Program-made: the position numbers and the translations under genes
Part shown: positions 7,264-63,993 of the stretch, piece by piece
Numbering within the stretch: position 1 is the stretch's first letter
How the letters are laid out: every line of letters begins with the position of its first letter
Source: a virus
DNA: 64,000 bases
Virus record (IMG/VR): IMGVR_UViG_3300009506_000002
Coordinates: 78,378 to 142,377 of that record
Direction: 5' to 3' (one strand)
Notes under the pieces: generated by a model
The model's database searches: none
Seen by the model: only the letters and a program-made list of their open reading frames with translations
What the model was told of the DNA's origin: nothing

Positions 7264-8108
7264 CAGACGGCCACCTTGCCTGTCAGCTTCGGATGCGAAT
7301 GGTAGTTGATCAGTTGGATGTCGTCGAACTTGAAGTCGTCGATCTCCTTGCAGTCCGGGTTGAGTGCAACCAGAGGGAAGTGGTGCGGCTTTCTGGTCAA
7401 CTGTTCATTGATCTGCTCAATGTGGTTCTCGTAGATGTGAGTATCGCCACCTGTCCAGATCAGCTCGTGTGCTTCCAGTCCTGTAACGTGAGCCACCATC
7501 TGCAGAAGCAGAGCGTAGCTGGCAATGTTGAACGGAAGCCCTAAGAAGCTGTCTACGCTTCGCTGGTACATTTGAAGTGAAAGTTTACCATTGATGTGGA
7601 AAAACTGGTAGAACGCATGACAGGGCGGCAGAGCACACTTTCCGTTGGCGACATTGACCGAGAAGGAATCTTCATCCACTGGCAACACTTTTGGATTCCA
7701 GGCCGAGCAGATCAAACGGCGGTCGTTCGGATTTGTGCGCAGCTTGTCAATGATGTTCTGTAGCTGGTCGATGCCAGAACCATCAAAGTTGCGCCATTGC
7801 GCGCCATACACAGGACCGAGGTCGCCGTTTTCATTGGCCCACTCATTCCAGATGCGGACGCCGTTGTCCTGCAGGTACTTGATGTTCGTATTGCCCGAAA
7901 TGAACCATAGCAGCTCGTGAGCAATCGACGGGAAGTGGGTGAACTTGGTTGTCAGCAGCGGGAATCCCTCTCTGAGGTTAAACCTCATCTGGGTTCCGAA
8001 AATTGCGTAGGTGCCAACGCCAGTGCGGTTGTCTTTGTATTCACCTTCATCAAGAATTCGTCTCACGAGATTGAGGTATTGGTACTCTGGGTGTTCCTTC
8101 TGATGCAT
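7263..8108 (-). CDS. td: Thymidylate synthase (ThyA family), uninterrupted
   Basis: [44 protein letters not shown]. Confidence 0.97.
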
Positions 8109-43874: not shown

Positions 43875-45122
43875 TTACATGAACGTCAGACCGACTTTGT
43901 CTGCCGCTCTGCTATATCCATTCTTTGTTCTTAGTACCACTTTCGGTATCTTTGCAGCTTTGCCCGATATCGGCTTGATGTCGAAATTTGGTGCGCCATC
44001 AGGTCTGAATCGGTTCATAATCAAATAATGAACTCTGCTAATGATAGCAGCTTTGAACATGCTTGTAAAGTCCAAAGTTCCATTCTTTGACTGTTCAACG
44101 AGCAGCTTCTCAAGCTCGTATCTAATATAGCCGTAGTCGGTGATTCCTTCCTTCTTTGGCTTGACCTTGTTCTTGTTGATCAGGTCGGTGAACAGGTGGA
44201 GCTGTGACCACCCGTCGATATCTCTTGATGACTTCACGCCAGCGATTGAGTCGAGGTGCTTCTTGGTAAAGCCAGGTACCTTTGCTGCCATTGCGGCATA
44301 GAACGCGCCAGTGTTGACGCTGTTATCGGTTAGTGCCTGCAGGACTTCATACTCTTGGGTCTTCTTGTAGTGTTGCAGCATCTTATCTGTGCCAATGATC
44401 TTGATCAGGTCAGAACCCTTGACGGTGTTCGATGCTGATCCACCAGCCTTTGACGACACGCGCACAACTGACTTCTCATCCTTTGAGTAGACGTAGAAGT
44501 CAACCAGTGGCTCGTTACCTGACACAGGGAAGAATGCTTTCCAAGACATGTCAATCATGCCAATGTGCAGCAAGTAGAACGGGCCTAGCAGTTCACCAAA
44601 GTTCTTCTGGATTTCGTTGATTGGCATGGTCTTGACTTCAACACTCTTTGGGAGCATCTTTGTGCCTCCCATGTAGTAATCAGTCAAAAGGTGTAGGAAA
44701 TCACGGATTGACTCTGACAGATCAGTTCGCTTATCAATCGCAACTTTCACTGCCTTGTGATAGTCCTTAAGGCCATATTTCTTACCAACGAGGTTGTAGA
44801 AATCTTGAGGCTTCAACTTATGTGCTTTTGCGCCCTTAGCCCACGAAAGTCCATACTGTGCAGGGCTTACCATACTTGCAACAGGAGCACCATACTTGAG
44901 AAATTGAAGAGTCTTGCTGCCTGCTTGGATAACTGCAAAGTGGCCTCTATTTTCAAGTTTACCTTTGACCACGCCAGTTCCATTAACCTTATACGGCTTG
45001 AGGTCTTTCTCTAGGTCGCGTGAGTAGCCAATTCCCAAGACCTCGTAGACACCTCCCTTGTACTTGACAAGGTCGCCGATGTGAGACGGGTCAAACAGTC
45101 CGCCGACGCTACGCGCTGACAC
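43875..45122 (-). CDS. Putative PD-(D/E)XK-like nuclease
   Basis: NFGELLG...FP..GNEPLVDF...VSSK pattern. Confidence 0.5.
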   Translation of the reverse strand: MSARSVGGLFDPSHIGDLVKYKGGVYEVLGIGYSRDLEKDLKPYKVNGTGVVKGKLENRGHFAVIQAGSKTLQFLKYGAPVASMVSPAQYGLSWAKGAKAHKLKPQDFYNLVGKKYGLKDYHKAVKVAIDKRTDLSESIRDFLHLLTDYYMGGTKMLPKSVEVKTMPINEIQKNFGELLGPFYLLHIGMIDMSWKAFFPVSGNEPLVDFYVYSKDEKSVVRVSSKAGGSASNTVKGSDLIKIIGTDKMLQHYKKTQEYEVLQALTDNSVNTGAFYAAMAAKVPGFTKKHLDSIAGVKSSRDIDGWSQLHLFTDLINKNKVKPKKEGITDYGYIRYELEKLLVEQSKNGTLDFTSMFKAAIISRVHYLIMNRFRPDGAPNFDIKPISGKAAKIPKVVLRTKNGYSRAADKVGLTFM

Positions 45123-46388
45123 TTAGAGTCTCCAGAGCATGCCTGAGATTTGGTTGAGAGGAGCGAACAGGCCAGTGAGTTTCAGCAACTCGCCCTTATA
45201 GAAGAACGTGATGCCTTCGGTCGGAACCAGCTTTTCAATGCCGCCAATCTTGTTGATGCGGTCGAGCTCCAGACGCAGCTTGGCAATGACATCTGGGTCA
45301 GTTGACTTCTCAAGCGTCTTGACTGTAGAGTGGAACTTCTGTCGCATGTTGTCAAGGGTGTGATCAGGGTTGACTGCAATCAAGGTATCGATTCCCTGTA
45401 GCACTTCAACACCTACGCGCAGGAACAGAACCTCGAATGGCAAGTGCATTCGCTTGCTCTCGTTCTTGGCTTCTCTCTTGTCGAAGTTCTTGACCTTCTG
45501 CGCCAGTGCTTTGTCGAGACCCTTGGCGATAGTATTGATATTTGGGGTTTTGATGCCATGCGCCCAACGATTGACCAGTGCCTTCTTGGTTGCTTCATCA
45601 ACTGCTGCAAAGTTCTTCGCCACGTAAGATGTCCAGTATGAGGTTGTGTAGTCCTTGATCGTGTTGTTCCAGCTTAGACGCTGGCCCTTCATGATCTTGC
45701 CAAGCTCTGCAATGTGCTTCGCGCGTAGGGTATCGTAGTTTGGCATCTTCTGCAGACGCAGCTTATCGATCTCCTTGATTGTGAAGGTTGACTGTTTGTG
45801 AGCCTGCACTTTTTGGAGCATTTTTGCCAGCGCTGCACCATCGGCCTTGTTTAGCTGGCTGATAGGCTCGCCCGCTTCATTGTACTCGAGTGTACCGTGG
45901 AAGCGCAGTTCATCGACGCCGTAGTGAATGACGTTTGGGTTAGATGAGTACAACACCTCAACAGACATGAAGCGCTTGCCGTTCATGAAAATCTTGTCGC
46001 GTTGATCAGCAGACAGTTCCTTGACCGCAGTCTCTAGGTCGCGTGCAGCTTCAACAAAGGCTGTTTCGATTGTGCCACGTCCTGCGAACATTGCCTTGAC
46101 ACCATCAACACCCATTGCATTTTCGCCTGCGTTCTTGAGGTGACTCTTGTTGCGTGCAGCAATCAGTCGTCCGCCACGCCATGAAACCAGAAGGTTCTGG
46201 CCGTCAGTCTTTTCGCGTGACCATTCAAGTTCGCCCGAGAGTGACTTGTCGATGATGTCGCGTAGATCTTTGAAAGTGAAGGTCTCGATGTCAAATGGAT
46301 GAGCGAGGTGACCGAAGCCACCACCCTCATCTAGACGTTCTGATTCCTTGAGATAGGTCGAAAATCGCTTAATTGCAGGAGATGCCAT
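45123..46388 (-). CDS. Ligase-like KxDG nucleotidyltransferase protein with capsid-targeting leader
   Basis: KRFSTYLKE.RLDE leader; GHLAHPFD, EKTDGQN, EGITF, KLTGLFAPLNQI; late promoter at 46418-46425. Confidence 0.7.
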   Translation of the reverse strand: MASPAIKRFSTYLKESERLDEGGGFGHLAHPFDIETFTFKDLRDIIDKSLSGELEWSREKTDGQNLLVSWRGGRLIAARNKSHLKNAGENAMGVDGVKAMFAGRGTIETAFVEAARDLETAVKELSADQRDKIFMNGKRFMSVEVLYSSNPNVIHYGVDELRFHGTLEYNEAGEPISQLNKADGAALAKMLQKVQAHKQSTFTIKEIDKLRLQKMPNYDTLRAKHIAELGKIMKGQRLSWNNTIKDYTTSYWTSYVAKNFAAVDEATKKALVNRWAHGIKTPNINTIAKGLDKALAQKVKNFDKREAKNESKRMHLPFEVLFLRVGVEVLQGIDTLIAVNPDHTLDNMRQKFHSTVKTLEKSTDPDVIAKLRLELDRINKIGGIEKLVPTEGITFFYKGELLKLTGLFAPLNQISGMLWRL

Positions 46389-46597
46389 GTATTCCTCATA
46401 GTTGAAAGATATACCACTATTTATTAGATGACTCGCCACGTATCAAATTGACTGCGGGCGACATCGTCATGTGGAAAATATCATCTCCTTCGGCTTCACT
46501 GGCAGGCAGCCCCACCAGATCATTGCCGCGTCTGGCAATCACGACGTAATCGTCAGGCACTTCATACAGTTTTCCTTCATATTCAAGAACAATCATG

Positions 46598-48028: not shown

Positions 48029-48381
48029 TAAATGGCTCCGATGTGGACTTCACCTTGATCGTGAGTTGCTTCCGTTTTTGAAGGCAGTTGCCCTACGTAC
48101 TCATCGATGATATTGATGGCAGCGGCCATTACCTTGCTGTCAAAGTCAGCGGGAATTTCCTGCTCAAAGCCGGCCACGATCTTGTAGTCGACGTCGAGTA
48201 CTGGCATACCTGCAGACTCATCCATCTCGGTGTGGATGTCATCAATCCGTATGGTGATGCCATCGATCAGAATACCCGTGCTGCCAGGATGGCCTTCAAG
48301 CTTCTGATCTTCCTCGAGCTCTACCAGTTGAAAGGTAAAGCCCTCTTCGCCTTGATATGGTTCTACGATTTTTACTGTCAT
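48028..48381 (-). CDS. Hypothetical protein in the gp40 position
   Basis: Synteny uvsX-X-41 only. Confidence 0.55.
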   Translation of the reverse strand: MTVKIVEPYQGEEGFTFQLVELEEDQKLEGHPGSTGILIDGITIRIDDIHTEMDESAGMPVLDVDYKIVAGFEQEIPADFDSKVMAAAINIIDEYVGQLPSKTEATHDQGEVHIGAI

Positions 48382-48923
48382 TCGGATTCGTCCTCGTCGG
48401 TTAGAATTGCGTTTTCAGCCAGCATGTACTTCTTCTCAATGTCCTTGACGAACGATGTACCTTCAAGGATTGGAGCCCAGAACTCCTTGGTCGAAGTCTG
48501 CTTGCGGTGTGTTTGCTTGTCATCAGGAACACATGGTCTGGTGAAATAGCCGTTTCGTGGCTTGACAACATGACCAAACTCTTCCGCCAGTTCAAGAAGG
48601 CCTGACCACTTATCGACACCACCGTCGAACTTGACAGTGACAATGATCTTGCTCTTTTCCTTGACGTATCGAGACTTCTCGATGTTGATGACGAAGTTGT
48701 AACCAGCCAGATCCGAGCCTTCCTTCTCTTGCTGGCGTCCTACAATCCAGATGGTGTCTGAAGAGTAGATGCCGCCGGTGCCGCCTGATACAACAGCCTT
48801 TGAGAACATCTCCTGGGTATTATGTGAAATTAGTCCGTTTCCAAGAACATACGAATGAGATGGCGTCTCAAAGTCATATACCCGGTCTCTCCTAACATTA
48901 TGTCGTATGTTTTTTATTTTCAC
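48378..48923 (-). CDS. uvsX: UvsX C-terminal part fused to split-intein C-half (48819-48923)
   Basis: 35-aa IntC VYDFETPSHSY.LGNGLISHN then TQEMFSKAVVSGGTG, EKSRYVKEKS. Confidence 0.93.
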   Translation of the reverse strand: MKIKNIRHNVRRDRVYDFETPSHSYVLGNGLISHNTQEMFSKAVVSGGTGGIYSSDTIWIVGRQQEKEGSDLAGYNFVINIEKSRYVKEKSKIIVTVKFDGGVDKWSGLLELAEEFGHVVKPRNGYFTRPCVPDDKQTHRKQTSTKEFWAPILEGTSFVKDIEKKYMLAENAILTDEDESE

Positions 48924-49608
48924 CTTTCTCTCCTCTTTTCCATCGCATGCCGTAGACTGGGTTGCCCGGCCCTCGGCGCTCTATGCTCATTTTTCTATTT
49001 CTTTCGGTGTAATCATATGCCTTTGTTGCTGCAATACGCCGAGCTTCTTGCTCTGGTGTAAAGTTTGCTCGAACAATCTTAGATGCATTCGATCTTCGCA
49101 ATCTGCGAGCTTCTCTCAATTTGTCCTCGAGTCCGTTACAAACCGACCAATGACGCAATGATGAATTTACATTGTGCATAGACATTGAGTATTTTTCCGA
49201 TATTTGTTGTACTGTATAATTGCCCATGACATACAAATTCCAAATAACCACACATTGATCGGAATAATCACAAAACCCATACTTTCTTGCCCAAGCATCA
49301 CGAACCACATCAGAATGCCTCGCATTCGTAATCCTTCTCACCCACCCATATAGTTTATTGTTTCTTCCGGGTAGTGAGGTTGACATCATAACACAAGCAA
49401 AAACCAACCCACTCACTTCCGGATGCATCTTCAACAATAGCAGATGCGCCGTATAGTGTTCCTCAGGAAGAAGTTCGACAAGATTTGATTCGTCGTCTGA
49501 TCCTCCCATACATCTGGGTAATATATGGTGCCTTTCTAGATATTCGTTCAGAATATTCCTTTTTCTTGCTCGATCGATAAGTCTCTCGTAGTGTTTGCGA
49601 TAATTCAT
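48898..49608 (-). mobile_element. Free-standing HNH homing endonuclease
   Basis: ERHHILPRCMGGSDDESNLVELLPEEHYTAH; AT-rich; between intein halves. Confidence 0.9.
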
Positions 49609-49641
49609 ACGTTCTAAACCCTTTGTTCTATAAGTATGAAT

Positions 49642-50514
49642 TTATTTATACGAATCAATGATTTCACCTTCTCTGAGATCGCACACATATTTCCATTCAC
49701 CTTCCACCATAAACCGATGGCCGTCAGTGAACTCCAAGATCTCACCACTTTCTAACTCAATTTCAGTTATCCATGCGCCATCATGTTCTGTTGTCCACTT
49801 CACCGCTTCTGGTCCGGCAATGGTCATAACTTGATCGCCAGCAACGACATCCTTGATAGACTTTGTCGTTCCATCAGGCAACAAAACCGTCATCTTTTCC
49901 GTTCCGCATTGGTAGGTGTGGTTGATGGCAATGAGAGGAATGTCCTTCAGTGTGAGGTGCGGTGTGACAATACGCCACAAAGACTTCAACTGCTTCGCGC
50001 GCGTCATGTCAGCAACAGCCTTCATGTCGAGTGCGTCTTCGACTTCCTTCTTTGATGCCAGGTTACCGATTGAGTCAATGAACAGGATAACGTCATCCTC
50101 TTCCTCAATGTGATCGAGCTGATTCATGATGTCGAATTTCAGCTCTTCGATGTTGGTGATTGGGGTATGCACTACCCTCTGTGGGTCAATACCAACTGAC
50201 TTGAAATAGGACTGACCTGCGCCGAATTCTGAGTCATAGAACAGACAAACTGCATCAGGTTTAGCCTTCATGTAAGCCGCTGCCATGATCAGTCCGAACA
50301 GCGTCTTGAAGTGCTTAGACGGTCCTGCAATCATGGTCAAGCCACAACCCAGGCCACCCATAGGGCTACCAGACAGACCGATGTTGATAGCAGGAACCAC
50401 TGTAGGAACCAGCTTCTTATTGGAATGTACTTTTGAGTTGTCGAGTGTTTCGGTACGCTTAGTTAGCGTTGAATTTTTGAGTAGTCTTTCAGTCAGACTC
50501 GGTTTCGCTGCCAT
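49642..50514 (-). CDS. uvsX: UvsX (RecA-like) N-terminal part fused to split-intein N-half (49645-49908)
   Basis: AGPSKHFKT, YDSEFG, IDSIGNLAS, ADMTRAK, NHTYQ|CGT...FTDGHRF. Confidence 0.94.
   Translation of the reverse strand: MAAKPSLTERLLKNSTLTKRTETLDNSKVHSNKKLVPTVVPAINIGLSGSPMGGLGCGLTMIAGPSKHFKTLFGLIMAAAYMKAKPDAVCLFYDSEFGAGQSYFKSVGIDPQRVVHTPITNIEELKFDIMNQLDHIEEEDDVILFIDSIGNLASKKEVEDALDMKAVADMTRAKQLKSLWRIVTPHLTLKDIPLIAINHTYQCGTEKMTVLLPDGTTKSIKDVVAGDQVMTIAGPEAVKWTTEHDGAWITEIELESGEILEFTDGHRFMVEGEWKYVCDLREGEIIDSYK
49643..49650 (-). promoter_or_regulatory. T4 late promoter TATAAATA driving HNH/IntC
   Basis: Exact consensus overlapping uvsX-N stop. Confidence 0.7.
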
Positions 50515-54293: not shown

Positions 54294-54299
54294 ATATTG

Positions 54300-54507
54300 A
54301 AAACACTGACCGATAGCCGGGATTCTGTCTTGGGTGACCATTCGCCTATCTGCCACAACCCGGAATCTCAGGCTAGAACTTGCCTCATCCTGTTTGTGTT
54401 GCACAGCCCCTTGCGGTATATCTGTAGTGAAACGCCAAAGGCTCCTACAGCATGTTCTGGCTGTGTCCCGAGCTTCCTCACCGTAGTGCGGTCACCTGGT
54501 CAGTTTT
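54300..54507 (-). ncRNA. rnpB: Minimal RNase P RNA
   Basis: P1 ctgacc/ggtcag, P2 ggtgacc/ggtcacc, GAGGAAGCTCGGG, GTGCAACA, ACAGAATCCCGGCTA. Confidence 0.85.
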
Positions 54508-55453: not shown

Positions 55454-55531
55454 TGGATGCTGAAGCCCTGGAGTTGAACCAGGTTTAAAGAGGTTATGAG
55501 CCTCCAGCAGATACCGACCTGCCCGCCAGCA
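55454..55531 (-). tRNA. Atypical tRNA, anticodon CAT, bulged acceptor stem
   Basis: CTCATAA loop, TTCAACT T-loop, CCA. Confidence 0.6.
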
Positions 55532-56815: not shown

Positions 56816-56901
56816 TGGAGTCGCCAGAGGGAATCGAACCCTACGAGCCTTAGCTAAACGGTTTTGCAGACCGTTCCTAGATCCATCTGGGCACTGACGA
56901 C
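56816..56901 (-). tRNA. tRNA-Cys(GCA) with 8/4, tRNA-Sec-like fold
   Basis: 8-bp acceptor, 4-bp T-stem, long D-stem, variable arm, U73. Confidence 0.8.
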
Positions 56902-59425: not shown

Positions 59426-59502
59426 TGGTACTTCCTGAAGGAATCGAACCTTCTCGCCTCTCCTTGTAAGGGAGCGTCCTTCCCATTCGGACCCAAGGAA
59501 GC
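59426..59502 (-). tRNA. tRNA-Val(TAC)
   Basis: Cloverleaf with CCA. Confidence 0.8.
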
Positions 59503-60191: not shown

Positions 60192-60194
60192 GTT

Positions 60195-61075
60195 TTGAAA
60201 CTCACCCTTATTGGTTCATACGAAGAACTGATCAATTCAGCGCATGAACTAATAAAAGTGCAAGCCTTTAGAATTTGCTTGCTTGATGCAGCTTTAGCTC
60301 TTGTACGCTTTGAGGTGCTACCCTCCAGCTTGAGAACCTTTCCACGAAGCGCCATGCTTCGTACTACACCATGACCGCCTTTTATTTTACTGGTCTGGCA
60401 TTTGACCACTAACGCAGGTTTACTCTAGGATCTCTTTCCTTACAACACCGGCCAAAGTGCTGCAAGTGCAGTCGTCCTAAACTCACCGCCGCCTTGCGAG
60501 CTTTGGTAAGTCCTCATTACTCCGAAGAGTTGAGGAATTAGGTCACTTTTCTACCTACGTGGGGCAACGTCTTTGCGTTTTTGATTTAATACAAAGTTGG
60601 AATTGAACCAACACAAGTTCCTTTAAAGGGAACCGACCTACCATTAGTCGATTTGTGAACCTACCACGATGAGCGTTGCCCTGTGACTTCATACCCTTTT
60701 GAGGCACAAAATATCACCCACCGAATGTCTTTTGCCTTGCTATCAGCTACTAAACCATACTCTACGACCCTGGCAGCAAGTGTACTACCAAACCCATATC
60801 ATATTGCTATCTTGCTCTAGGTTGCAACACCTCGAACTCAATAACTACCCTTTGACCATCAGATTTCGCTGGCTTGCATCCTTATGCCGATTTGCGGTCA
60901 GCATCGACTTCACCTTTGGTTATTACGATCAGTCTTTTCAGGTCCAACTTCAAACCTATCTCCCACCGGAGCAGAAGACGAGTGGTCTTGGCTTGCTTGA
61001 ATGAACCATCTCTGGCGGGGCGCTGTAGGAAGCACTTCCCCTTTCCTGGCTTTCACCATTTATTCTTGCGTTAGG
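60195..61075 (-). ncRNA. Large structured ncRNA, GOLLD-like (boundaries approximate)
   Basis: About 900 nt with no credible ORF inside tRNA array; own promoter at 61156-61184; many hairpins; segments such as AAGAATAAA and CCTCAAAAGGGTATGAAG recall GOLLD. Confidence 0.6.
60588..60658 (-). tRNA. tRNA-like module with anticodon TTA embedded in the large ncRNA
   Basis: D-arm gact-aatggta-ggtc, gttcc-CTTTAAA-ggaac, gttgg-TTCAATT-ccaac; weak acceptor, no CCA. Confidence 0.65.
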
Positions 61076-61191
61076 ACGTCAAGCCGTCCATTAAATTGTA
61101 AAAGCTTTTGTAACTTTCTGCGCTTGCGCGCTGGTCAGTCACTGTCTTGATGTGAACTCTACCACAACTGGGAGTTCTTGTCAAGCTCTTT

Positions 61192-63919: not shown

Positions 63920-63993
63920 TGGTCTGGATGGGAGGAATCGAACCTCCATACCGTGGTTCCAGGCCACAGCGTTTACCATTAACCTACATCCAG
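63920..63993 (-). tRNA. tRNA-Pro(TGG), C33 variant
   Basis: tgtgg-CCTGGAA-ccacg; CCA. Confidence 0.8.

Follow-up and report, generated by a model that had tools for sequence, protein, structure and literature searches.

GOLLD RNAs are among the largest non-coding RNAs of bacteria and phages and form RNA-only cages, and the tRNAs found in their linkers have been proposed in print to be cargo or to be held in store. The stretch of phage DNA analysed here (the window: 64,000 nt, positions 78,378 to 142,377 of IMG/VR record IMGVR_UViG_3300009506_000002) contains a long non-coding RNA of this type in which the embedded tRNA-shaped module carries the ochre anticodon UUA. A sequence-only reading of the window had offered two explanations for it, a displayed tRNA decoy and a releasable UAA/UAG suppressor cut out by a phage RNase P. 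The architecture as such is already known: GOLLD forms 10- to 14-mer RNA cages in the published structures, with the linker on the inside and in some cases containing a tRNA (Kretsch et al. 2025, PMC12286853), and a passage of a review (PMC12990946), citing Morgado 2020, places a tRNA-Phe in J13/15 of Mycolicibacterium GOLLD; the same review proposes 'inhibited storage' for linker tRNA. The question is thus whether the UUA anticodon matters, and a literature search found no paper mentioning GOLLD together with a suppressor tRNA.

A divergent GOLLD RNA within a phage tRNA array

The source is a marine-sediment virus record of 142,377 bp that carries terminal repeats; the last ~144 bp of the contig repeat its start, and a tRNA-Pro(UGG) is called at both genome ends, the 3′ copy lying at 63920-63993 of the window. 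The phage encodes T4-like replication genes (a gp59-like loader, UvsX, topoisomerase II, a DnaB-like helicase and ribonucleotide reductase), and the last 10.6 kb of the window form a minus-strand array of 36 tRNA genes, inside which the non-coding RNA lies. The RNA spans about 890-950 nt on the minus strand, from ~61150 to ~60204, and on the strength of covariance-model and profile matches we assign it to the known family GOLLD, the giant cage-forming phage RNA, as a divergent member. Its recognisable parts are as follows.

61156-61184, minus strand: promoter-like site, TTGACA, 17-nt spacer with TG, TAGAGT (consensus scan, 10/12 matches; a pattern match only)
60725-61100, minus strand: GOLLD 5′ domain, the variable half, outside the Rfam model (nhmmer, 15 other GOLLD loci, E to 1.7e-15)
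60262-60724, minus strand: RF02032 match, comprising the last 5′ hairpin, the variable linker and the conserved 3′ domain (cmscan; nhmmer, 22 loci)
60674-60681, minus strand: linker-closing helix, 5′ strand, GGGCAACG in RNA sense (sequence; covariation of the homologous helix)
60562-60569, minus strand: linker-closing helix, 3′ strand, CGUUGCCC (sequence; covariation of the homologous helix)
60588-60658, minus strand: embedded tRNA-shaped module, 71 nt (ARAGORN; Rfam tRNA, 51.1 bits; covariation, 25 modules)
60204-60259, minus strand: stable hairpin, probable 3′-terminal structure (fold energy against shuffles; role inferred)

The Rfam model for GOLLD, RF02032, matches 60262-60724 (-) over its full length (model positions 1-416 of 416, cmscan with permissive filters) with 128.5 bits and E 4.1e-35, and a second scan gave the same match with E 7.7e-37. 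This is below the curated gathering cut-off of 150 bits, and a default Rfam gathering scan of the window reports tRNAs only, with GOLLD absent; the alignment loses score through the deletion of one model hairpin and the penalty on a 71-nt insert, and 12 of 14 related loci tested on the same model score 165-226 bits. The 3′ half is homologous to 22 GOLLD loci (nhmmer, E to 1e-17) and the 5′ half to 15 (nhmmer, E down to 1.7e-15), and because both halves are homologous to above-threshold GOLLDs we accept membership of the family despite the score; the RNA also has the two domains and the length of at least 800 nt expected of a GOLLD. The family name, which the sequence-only reading had given and had proposed to check with the GOLLD covariance model, is therefore borne out, and its coordinates and its description of a ~900-nt RNA with no credible ORF were accurate: the overlapping ORFs of 59-101 aa in this span have no PHROG family match.

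The window RNA sits on a long branch of the tree of GOLLD bodies. A blastn comparison of the 990-nt span with 50,697 phage records gave no match, and no close relative was found among the sampled loci, the best module identity being ~73%. A contig from the source run (depth 26) is identical to the window over this region, so that the TTA of the anticodon is upheld at the level of the assembled consensus. A second sequencing run of the same marine-sediment study matches parts of the GOLLD 5′ domain only. The source sample itself contains a short contig that is ~84% identical to window 60866-60967, part of the 5′ domain, and that probably derives from a related GOLLD in the same sediment.

The RNA had been described as lying behind its own promoter, and a consensus-like site is indeed predicted upstream of it at 61184-61156 (-), although as a pattern match only. 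At the other end, 60192-60300 (-) folds with -33.1 kcal/mol (z = -3.9; 0/200 shuffles as stable), and the hairpin at 60204-60259 is positioned between the end of the GOLLD model and a tRNA-Lys(CUU); we only infer its terminal role, since no U-tract follows. The inner of the two stems previously seen to enclose the tRNA corresponds to an 8-bp linker helix in which GGGCAACG (60674-60681) pairs with CGUUGCCC (60562-60569), and the homologous closing helix is 92% paired in 25 modules, with seven of ten pairs covarying. The other segments, gtcac/gtgac (60542-60546 / 60683-60687), are complementary too, but the Rfam consensus instead pairs GUCAC with an upstream GGUGA.

Several further members of the array are unusual in their own right. 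The tRNA at 56816-56901 (-), with the anticodon GCA, combines an acceptor stem of 8 bp and a T stem of 4 bp with a long variable arm. At 50.2 bits it exceeds the Rfam cut-off for tRNA-Sec (47 bits), so that its shape is Sec-like or that of an 'allo-tRNA' while its anticodon is that of a Cys tRNA. Two other odd members lie at 59426-59502 (-) and 55458-55530 (-); one has the anticodon ACA (A34) and an anticodon-stem mismatch, and the other is one of three CAU tRNAs, with a GCA end instead of CCA and an irregular D-arm. A reduced RNase P-like RNA at 54298-54507 (-) aligns end to end with the bacterial class-A model at 46.3 bits (cut-off 100; E 3.2e-13); it has ~210 nt vs 367, keeps the core motifs with large parts deleted, is absent from the gathering scan, and can be put forward as a candidate phage RNase P with sub-threshold support.

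The tRNA-shaped module in the linker

ARAGORN and the Rfam tRNA model (51.1 bits) both place a 71-nt tRNA at 60588-60658 (-), labelled 'tRNA-Stop' by ARAGORN. It falls as an insert in the unpaired variable linker of RF02032 (J13/15), between the 5′ and 3′ domains, which agrees with the linker tRNAs of PMC12286853 and PMC12990946 and with the statement of the sequence-only reading that GOLLDs can carry tRNAs in a variable region. The anticodon UUA, at 60624-60626, sits in a 7-nt loop, C-U-UUA-A-A, with U33 and A37, and the nucleotides that make the L-shape are complete (U8, A14, G18G19, A21, G53, U54U55C56, A58 and C61). Five of the seven acceptor pairs can form, 1-72 (U.U) and 2-71 (C.A) being mismatched and only one pair being G-C, and no CCA is encoded after the module. 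The cloverleaf with its UUA, its frayed acceptor and its missing CCA is confirmed. The minimum free energy of the tRNA alone against shuffles (z = -0.56) is usual for tRNAs and uninformative.

The label 'Gln-type' attached to the module at first does not hold, as the sequences closest to it are embedded modules (72-74% identity) whose anticodons are UUU or GUU, and identity to the phage's own tRNA-Gln is 65%. The anticodon arm, GUUCC-CUUUAAA-GGAAC, is nearly the same in L031 (loop CUUUUAA) and L023 (loop CUGUUAA), and a single substitution separates UUA from the UUU of the nearest modules.

One reading of these features is that of a releasable ochre suppressor, in which RNase P of host or phage, together with 3′ nucleases, would excise the caged tRNA, CCA would be added, LysRS would be the probable charging enzyme, and the product would read UAA and UAG. 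It is favoured by the canonical 7-nt loop with U33 and A37, by the intact L-shape, by the single substitution between this anticodon arm and those of UUU modules, and by precedent: supG and supL of E. coli are lysT-derived ochre suppressors that arose by UUU -> UUA, the same one-base route that separates the module loop from its nearest relatives. The E. coli suppressors, however, are fully functional CCA-ended forms of tRNA-Lys charged by LysRS, whereas the module has mismatches at 1-72 and 2-71, a single G-C pair in the stem and no CCA, in a genome where 39 of 42 tRNA calls are CCA-ended. We consider release as a suppressor quite unlikely, and the anticodon and genetic-code evidence below weighs further against it.

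Selection on the fold

A pattern built from 3′-core motifs only retrieved 15 viral loci, in seven of which ARAGORN calls a tRNA in the corresponding position; a further three have the T-loop of the module. An anticodon-neutral pattern (T-loop plus core motifs) retrieved 27 viral and 93 metagenome stretches, from which 84 unique modules were obtained. The module is common to most GOLLDs of this clade, a large one of aquatic and soil origin, and its members share conserved flanks, similar D- and T-arms, and A/U-rich, imperfect acceptor stems.

The covariation alignment comprised the cloverleaf and closing helix of 25 homologous modules. In it 93.9% of cells are paired and 25 of 31 pairs show double changes, a result matched by 0/500 shuffles. 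Pairing reaches 97-100% in the D, anticodon and T stems (100% in the anticodon stem), where 12 of the 14 pairs show compensatory change, and the elbow nucleotides do not vary among these 25 divergent modules. Because of the compensatory changes and the invariant elbow we regard the fold as under selection rather than decaying, and the alignment argues that it is purifying selection that keeps the L-shape, with its three arms (D, anticodon and T) and its elbow nucleotides.

These data bear directly on the suggestion that the module is a relic, a captured linker tRNA that has lost its function and is drifting as a pseudogene, UUA being part of its decay. The weak acceptor end without CCA is what such a history would leave, odd anticodons and irregular loops occur family-wide, and the mycobacterial case was named a pseudo-tRNA by Behra et al. 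(PMC6582537). Stems that remain paired through compensatory change around an invariant elbow speak against it, however, and decay seems to us a distinctly improbable account.

The sample also contains departures from the common arrangement. In L004, L010, L011, L012 and L013, of the same clade, a short hairpin of ~45 nt replaces the module just 5′ of the GCAAAG motif, and these loci provide natural module-less controls. The sister GOLLD bodies L005 and L017 (branch lengths 0.055 and 0.099) have clearly different CCA-ended modules, AUU in one and UUC in the other, and L069 (UUA, CCA-ended, in records of 377-471 kb) shares 93% identity with L091, a module with an 8-nt loop; as judged from such cases, some linker tRNAs may have been swapped, or may be real or recently captured tRNAs. 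Two distant relatives of the phage, L002 and L003, have 46% identity in one array protein (hydrolase-like, a GOLLD neighbour), and their tRNA arrays contain a tmRNA at 7302-7649 (+), with 112 bits and the tag peptide ANDDAPIAQAA; GOLLD is absent from both arrays, and they are therefore of no use for assessing conservation.

Decoder features in embedded and free tRNAs

If the module were a decoder, its acceptor end, CCA and anticodon would be the features of interest, and we compared these between embedded modules and free tRNAs using unique sequences (67 embedded and 753 free), with related sequences counted as independent.

Encoded CCA: embedded 8/67 (12%), free 692/753 (92%), p 5e-47
Fully paired acceptor stem: embedded 3/67, free 620/753
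A34 anticodon (other than ACG): embedded 8/67, free 8/753, p 1e-5
Irregular anticodon loop: embedded 5/67, free 5/753, p 6e-4
Stop anticodon: embedded 6/67, free 6/753, p 1.5e-4

Mean acceptor pairing is 5.0/7 in the embedded modules and 6.6/7 in the free tRNAs. By these sequence comparisons, the decoder features (acceptor end, CCA and anticodon) are relaxed in embedded modules. A further argument, from Ser- and Leu-anticodon modules without a long variable arm, was dropped, as many of the free 'Leu' tRNAs here are also short.

Lability of the anticodon

More than 20 different anticodons occur among the homologous modules. On a tree of 50 GOLLD bodies stripped of the module, at least 33 anticodon changes are needed over the 50 tips; the lowest number possible is 20, and shuffled labels need 37-40. 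A single anticodon base is the sole difference between L027 (UGG) and L034 (UGA) across the aligned module region. Stop anticodons were observed six times (UUA in the window, L026, L067 and L069; CUA in L025 and L140), against 4.5 expected from the positional base composition of the modules. The six modules are not each other's nearest relatives, and stop anticodons have thus arisen independently. Nor is there a sign that the anticodon is matched within the RNA: in a search for a complementary triplet elsewhere in GOLLD that covaries with it, the best column reached 33% complementarity, with a median of 30% and a 95th percentile of 35% for shuffled labels. That the anticodon is not conserved and that stop triplets appear at the rate set by base composition both argue against a suppressor.

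The same data can be used to evaluate the idea that the anticodon loop is bait. The modules would then mimic the anticodon arms of particular tRNAs of host or phage, mostly of the Asn/Lys type CU-NUU-AA, and absorb the host's anticodon nucleases or modification enzymes, with UUA as a drifted or escape variant of a Lys-type bait. Of the 71 called modules, 21 have GUU, UUU or CUU, U35 and U36 predominate, the anticodon stem is perfectly maintained, and GOLLD lies in tRNA arrays, which have been proposed to counter tRNA-targeting defences. Against this, the anticodon changes on the GOLLD tree almost as often as shuffled labels do, A34 is present in 12% of modules and 6-nt, 8-nt or otherwise irregular loops in 7.5%, some clade members have a short linker hairpin only, and the reported position of the linker within the cage (PMC12286853) would limit access for a large nuclease. 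We think such an anticodon-directed decoy unlikely.

The genetic code and the need for a suppressor

The window phage uses the standard genetic code. Greedy ORF tiling under code 11 accounts for 92% of the genome, fragmentation that would suggest stop-codon recoding is absent outside the tRNA array, and the stops of 222 ORFs are TAA in 107 (48%), TGA in 80 and TAG in 35. Nor were read-through genes found among the in-frame TAA/TAG-split ORF pairs examined, the pairs being separate genes. Suppressor tRNAs are known from stop-codon-recoded phages; here, with TAA at the end of nearly half of the genes and neither recoding nor read-through genes seen, there is little for an ochre suppressor to do.

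Among the candidates for read-through that were rejected, the one at 48901-50514 is a UvsX gene interrupted by an intein, the TAA being followed by a free-standing HNH gene; the halves of the one at 43878-46439 match separate genes in other phages; and for four further in-frame ORF pairs no family spans the stop. The UvsX locus (48378-50514, minus strand) has a 'fractured gene' layout, in which ORF 49642-50514 encodes UvsX-N and the start of the intein, ORF 48378-48923 (-) encodes the intein C-end and the UvsX C-terminal domain, and a free-standing HNH homing-endonuclease gene (48898-49608, -) lies within the split gene.

Free-standing CUA (amber) tRNAs are present in four related GOLLD phages, L005, L007, L025 and L026 (G003, G004, G001 and G002), and can be cited in support of a suppressor in the window phage as well. 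Two of these four records were examined at length, and in both the code is standard and TAA the dominant stop, so the free CUA suppressors are not signs of recoding. The source of L026 is a complete 214-kb phage that has an embedded UUA module in addition to its free CUA tRNA, again with the standard code and TAA dominant, and on the strength of the L025 and L026 records we rejected the idea that embedded stop anticodons mark recoded phages. Taken with the missing CCA, the weak acceptor and the unconserved anticodon, the lack of recoding or read-through genes leaves the proposed releasable UAA/UAG suppressor disfavoured.

A probably tethered tRNA-shaped domain

We think it probable that the UUA is an incidental state of a non-decoding, tethered tRNA-shaped module in a GOLLD cage, as what selection maintains is the fold, not the acceptor end, the CCA or a stable anticodon. 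The module would stay covalently tethered in the GOLLD linker and, since the published structures put the linker in the lumen, a cage of 10 to 14 subunits would enclose as many tRNA-shaped domains; these might serve as a shape-specific ligand or bait, the partner recognising the body of the tRNA and not its anticodon. Tethering in the lumen and the bait role are suggested by the cited structures and by the Northern result for M. aubagnense, the GOLLD of which has an internal pseudo-tRNA that gave no separate product (Behra et al. 2019, PMC6582537). That result, together with the conserved helix that closes the linker, also counts against release of a suppressor. Of the two explanations first offered, the decoy is closer to the evidence than the suppressor, but 'displayed' is probably wrong, since the published structure puts the linker inside the cage.

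Some observations run against tethering. The loop is fully canonical (C32, U33, A37 and A38) and all tertiary-contact nucleotides are intact, so that nothing in the sequence would bar decoding if the module were released. Host enzymes can mature tRNAs that lack an encoded CCA, some T4 tRNAs being examples, CCA is encoded in 8 of the 67 embedded modules, and the phage has the reduced RNase P-like RNA in the same array, which likewise favours a releasable suppressor. A variant of that reading makes the cage a timed-release container, in which 10-14 copies of an ochre/amber suppressor, possibly harmful to the phage itself, would sit uncleaved in the lumen until the cage opened late in infection, and would then be freed by the phage's RNase P-like RNA and the host CCA-adding enzyme. 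We give this very little credence; if true, it would produce a burst of stop-codon read-through.

Relation to known systems

The window RNA resembles GOLLD (RF02032) in its full-length model match, its two domains, its ~900 nt and its place in a phage tRNA array, and it resembles those GOLLDs with a linker tRNA in having the tRNA, in the same orientation, in the linker that joins the 5′ and 3′ domains; it differs in its score (128.5 vs 150 bits), its long branch and the UUA of its embedded module. With the free phage suppressor tRNAs (CUA, in L005, L007, L025 and L026) it has in common a stop-anticodon cloverleaf within a phage tRNA array. Those suppressors, however, are independent genes with paired acceptor stems, and the free tRNAs here are almost always CCA-ended (692/753), whereas the window module lies inside a larger RNA, has a frayed acceptor without CCA, and belongs to a genome that is not recoded.

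tRNA-like domains are also found in other larger RNAs, such as tmRNA, the 3′ tRNA-like structures of plant viruses, and mascRNA in MALAT1. The likeness is that a tRNA fold serves as a structural or recognition element and not as a decoder, so that the anticodon region is free to vary. The difference is that those domains are terminal or excised by RNase P, and several are aminoacylated, whereas the window module sits within the RNA, with a helix closing it off, in a linker reported to face the cage lumen.

The window locus is an ordinary though divergent member of its family, and it is the comparison with its relatives that provides a usable constraint: in this clade the linker tRNA behaves as a built-in tRNA-shaped domain and not as a deliverable decoder. 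For annotation, this means that 'suppressor tRNAs' called inside GOLLD genes should not be counted as a sign of stop-codon recoding. For the biology of GOLLD, the question shifts from which codon the linker tRNA reads to what recognises a tethered tRNA body within the cage.
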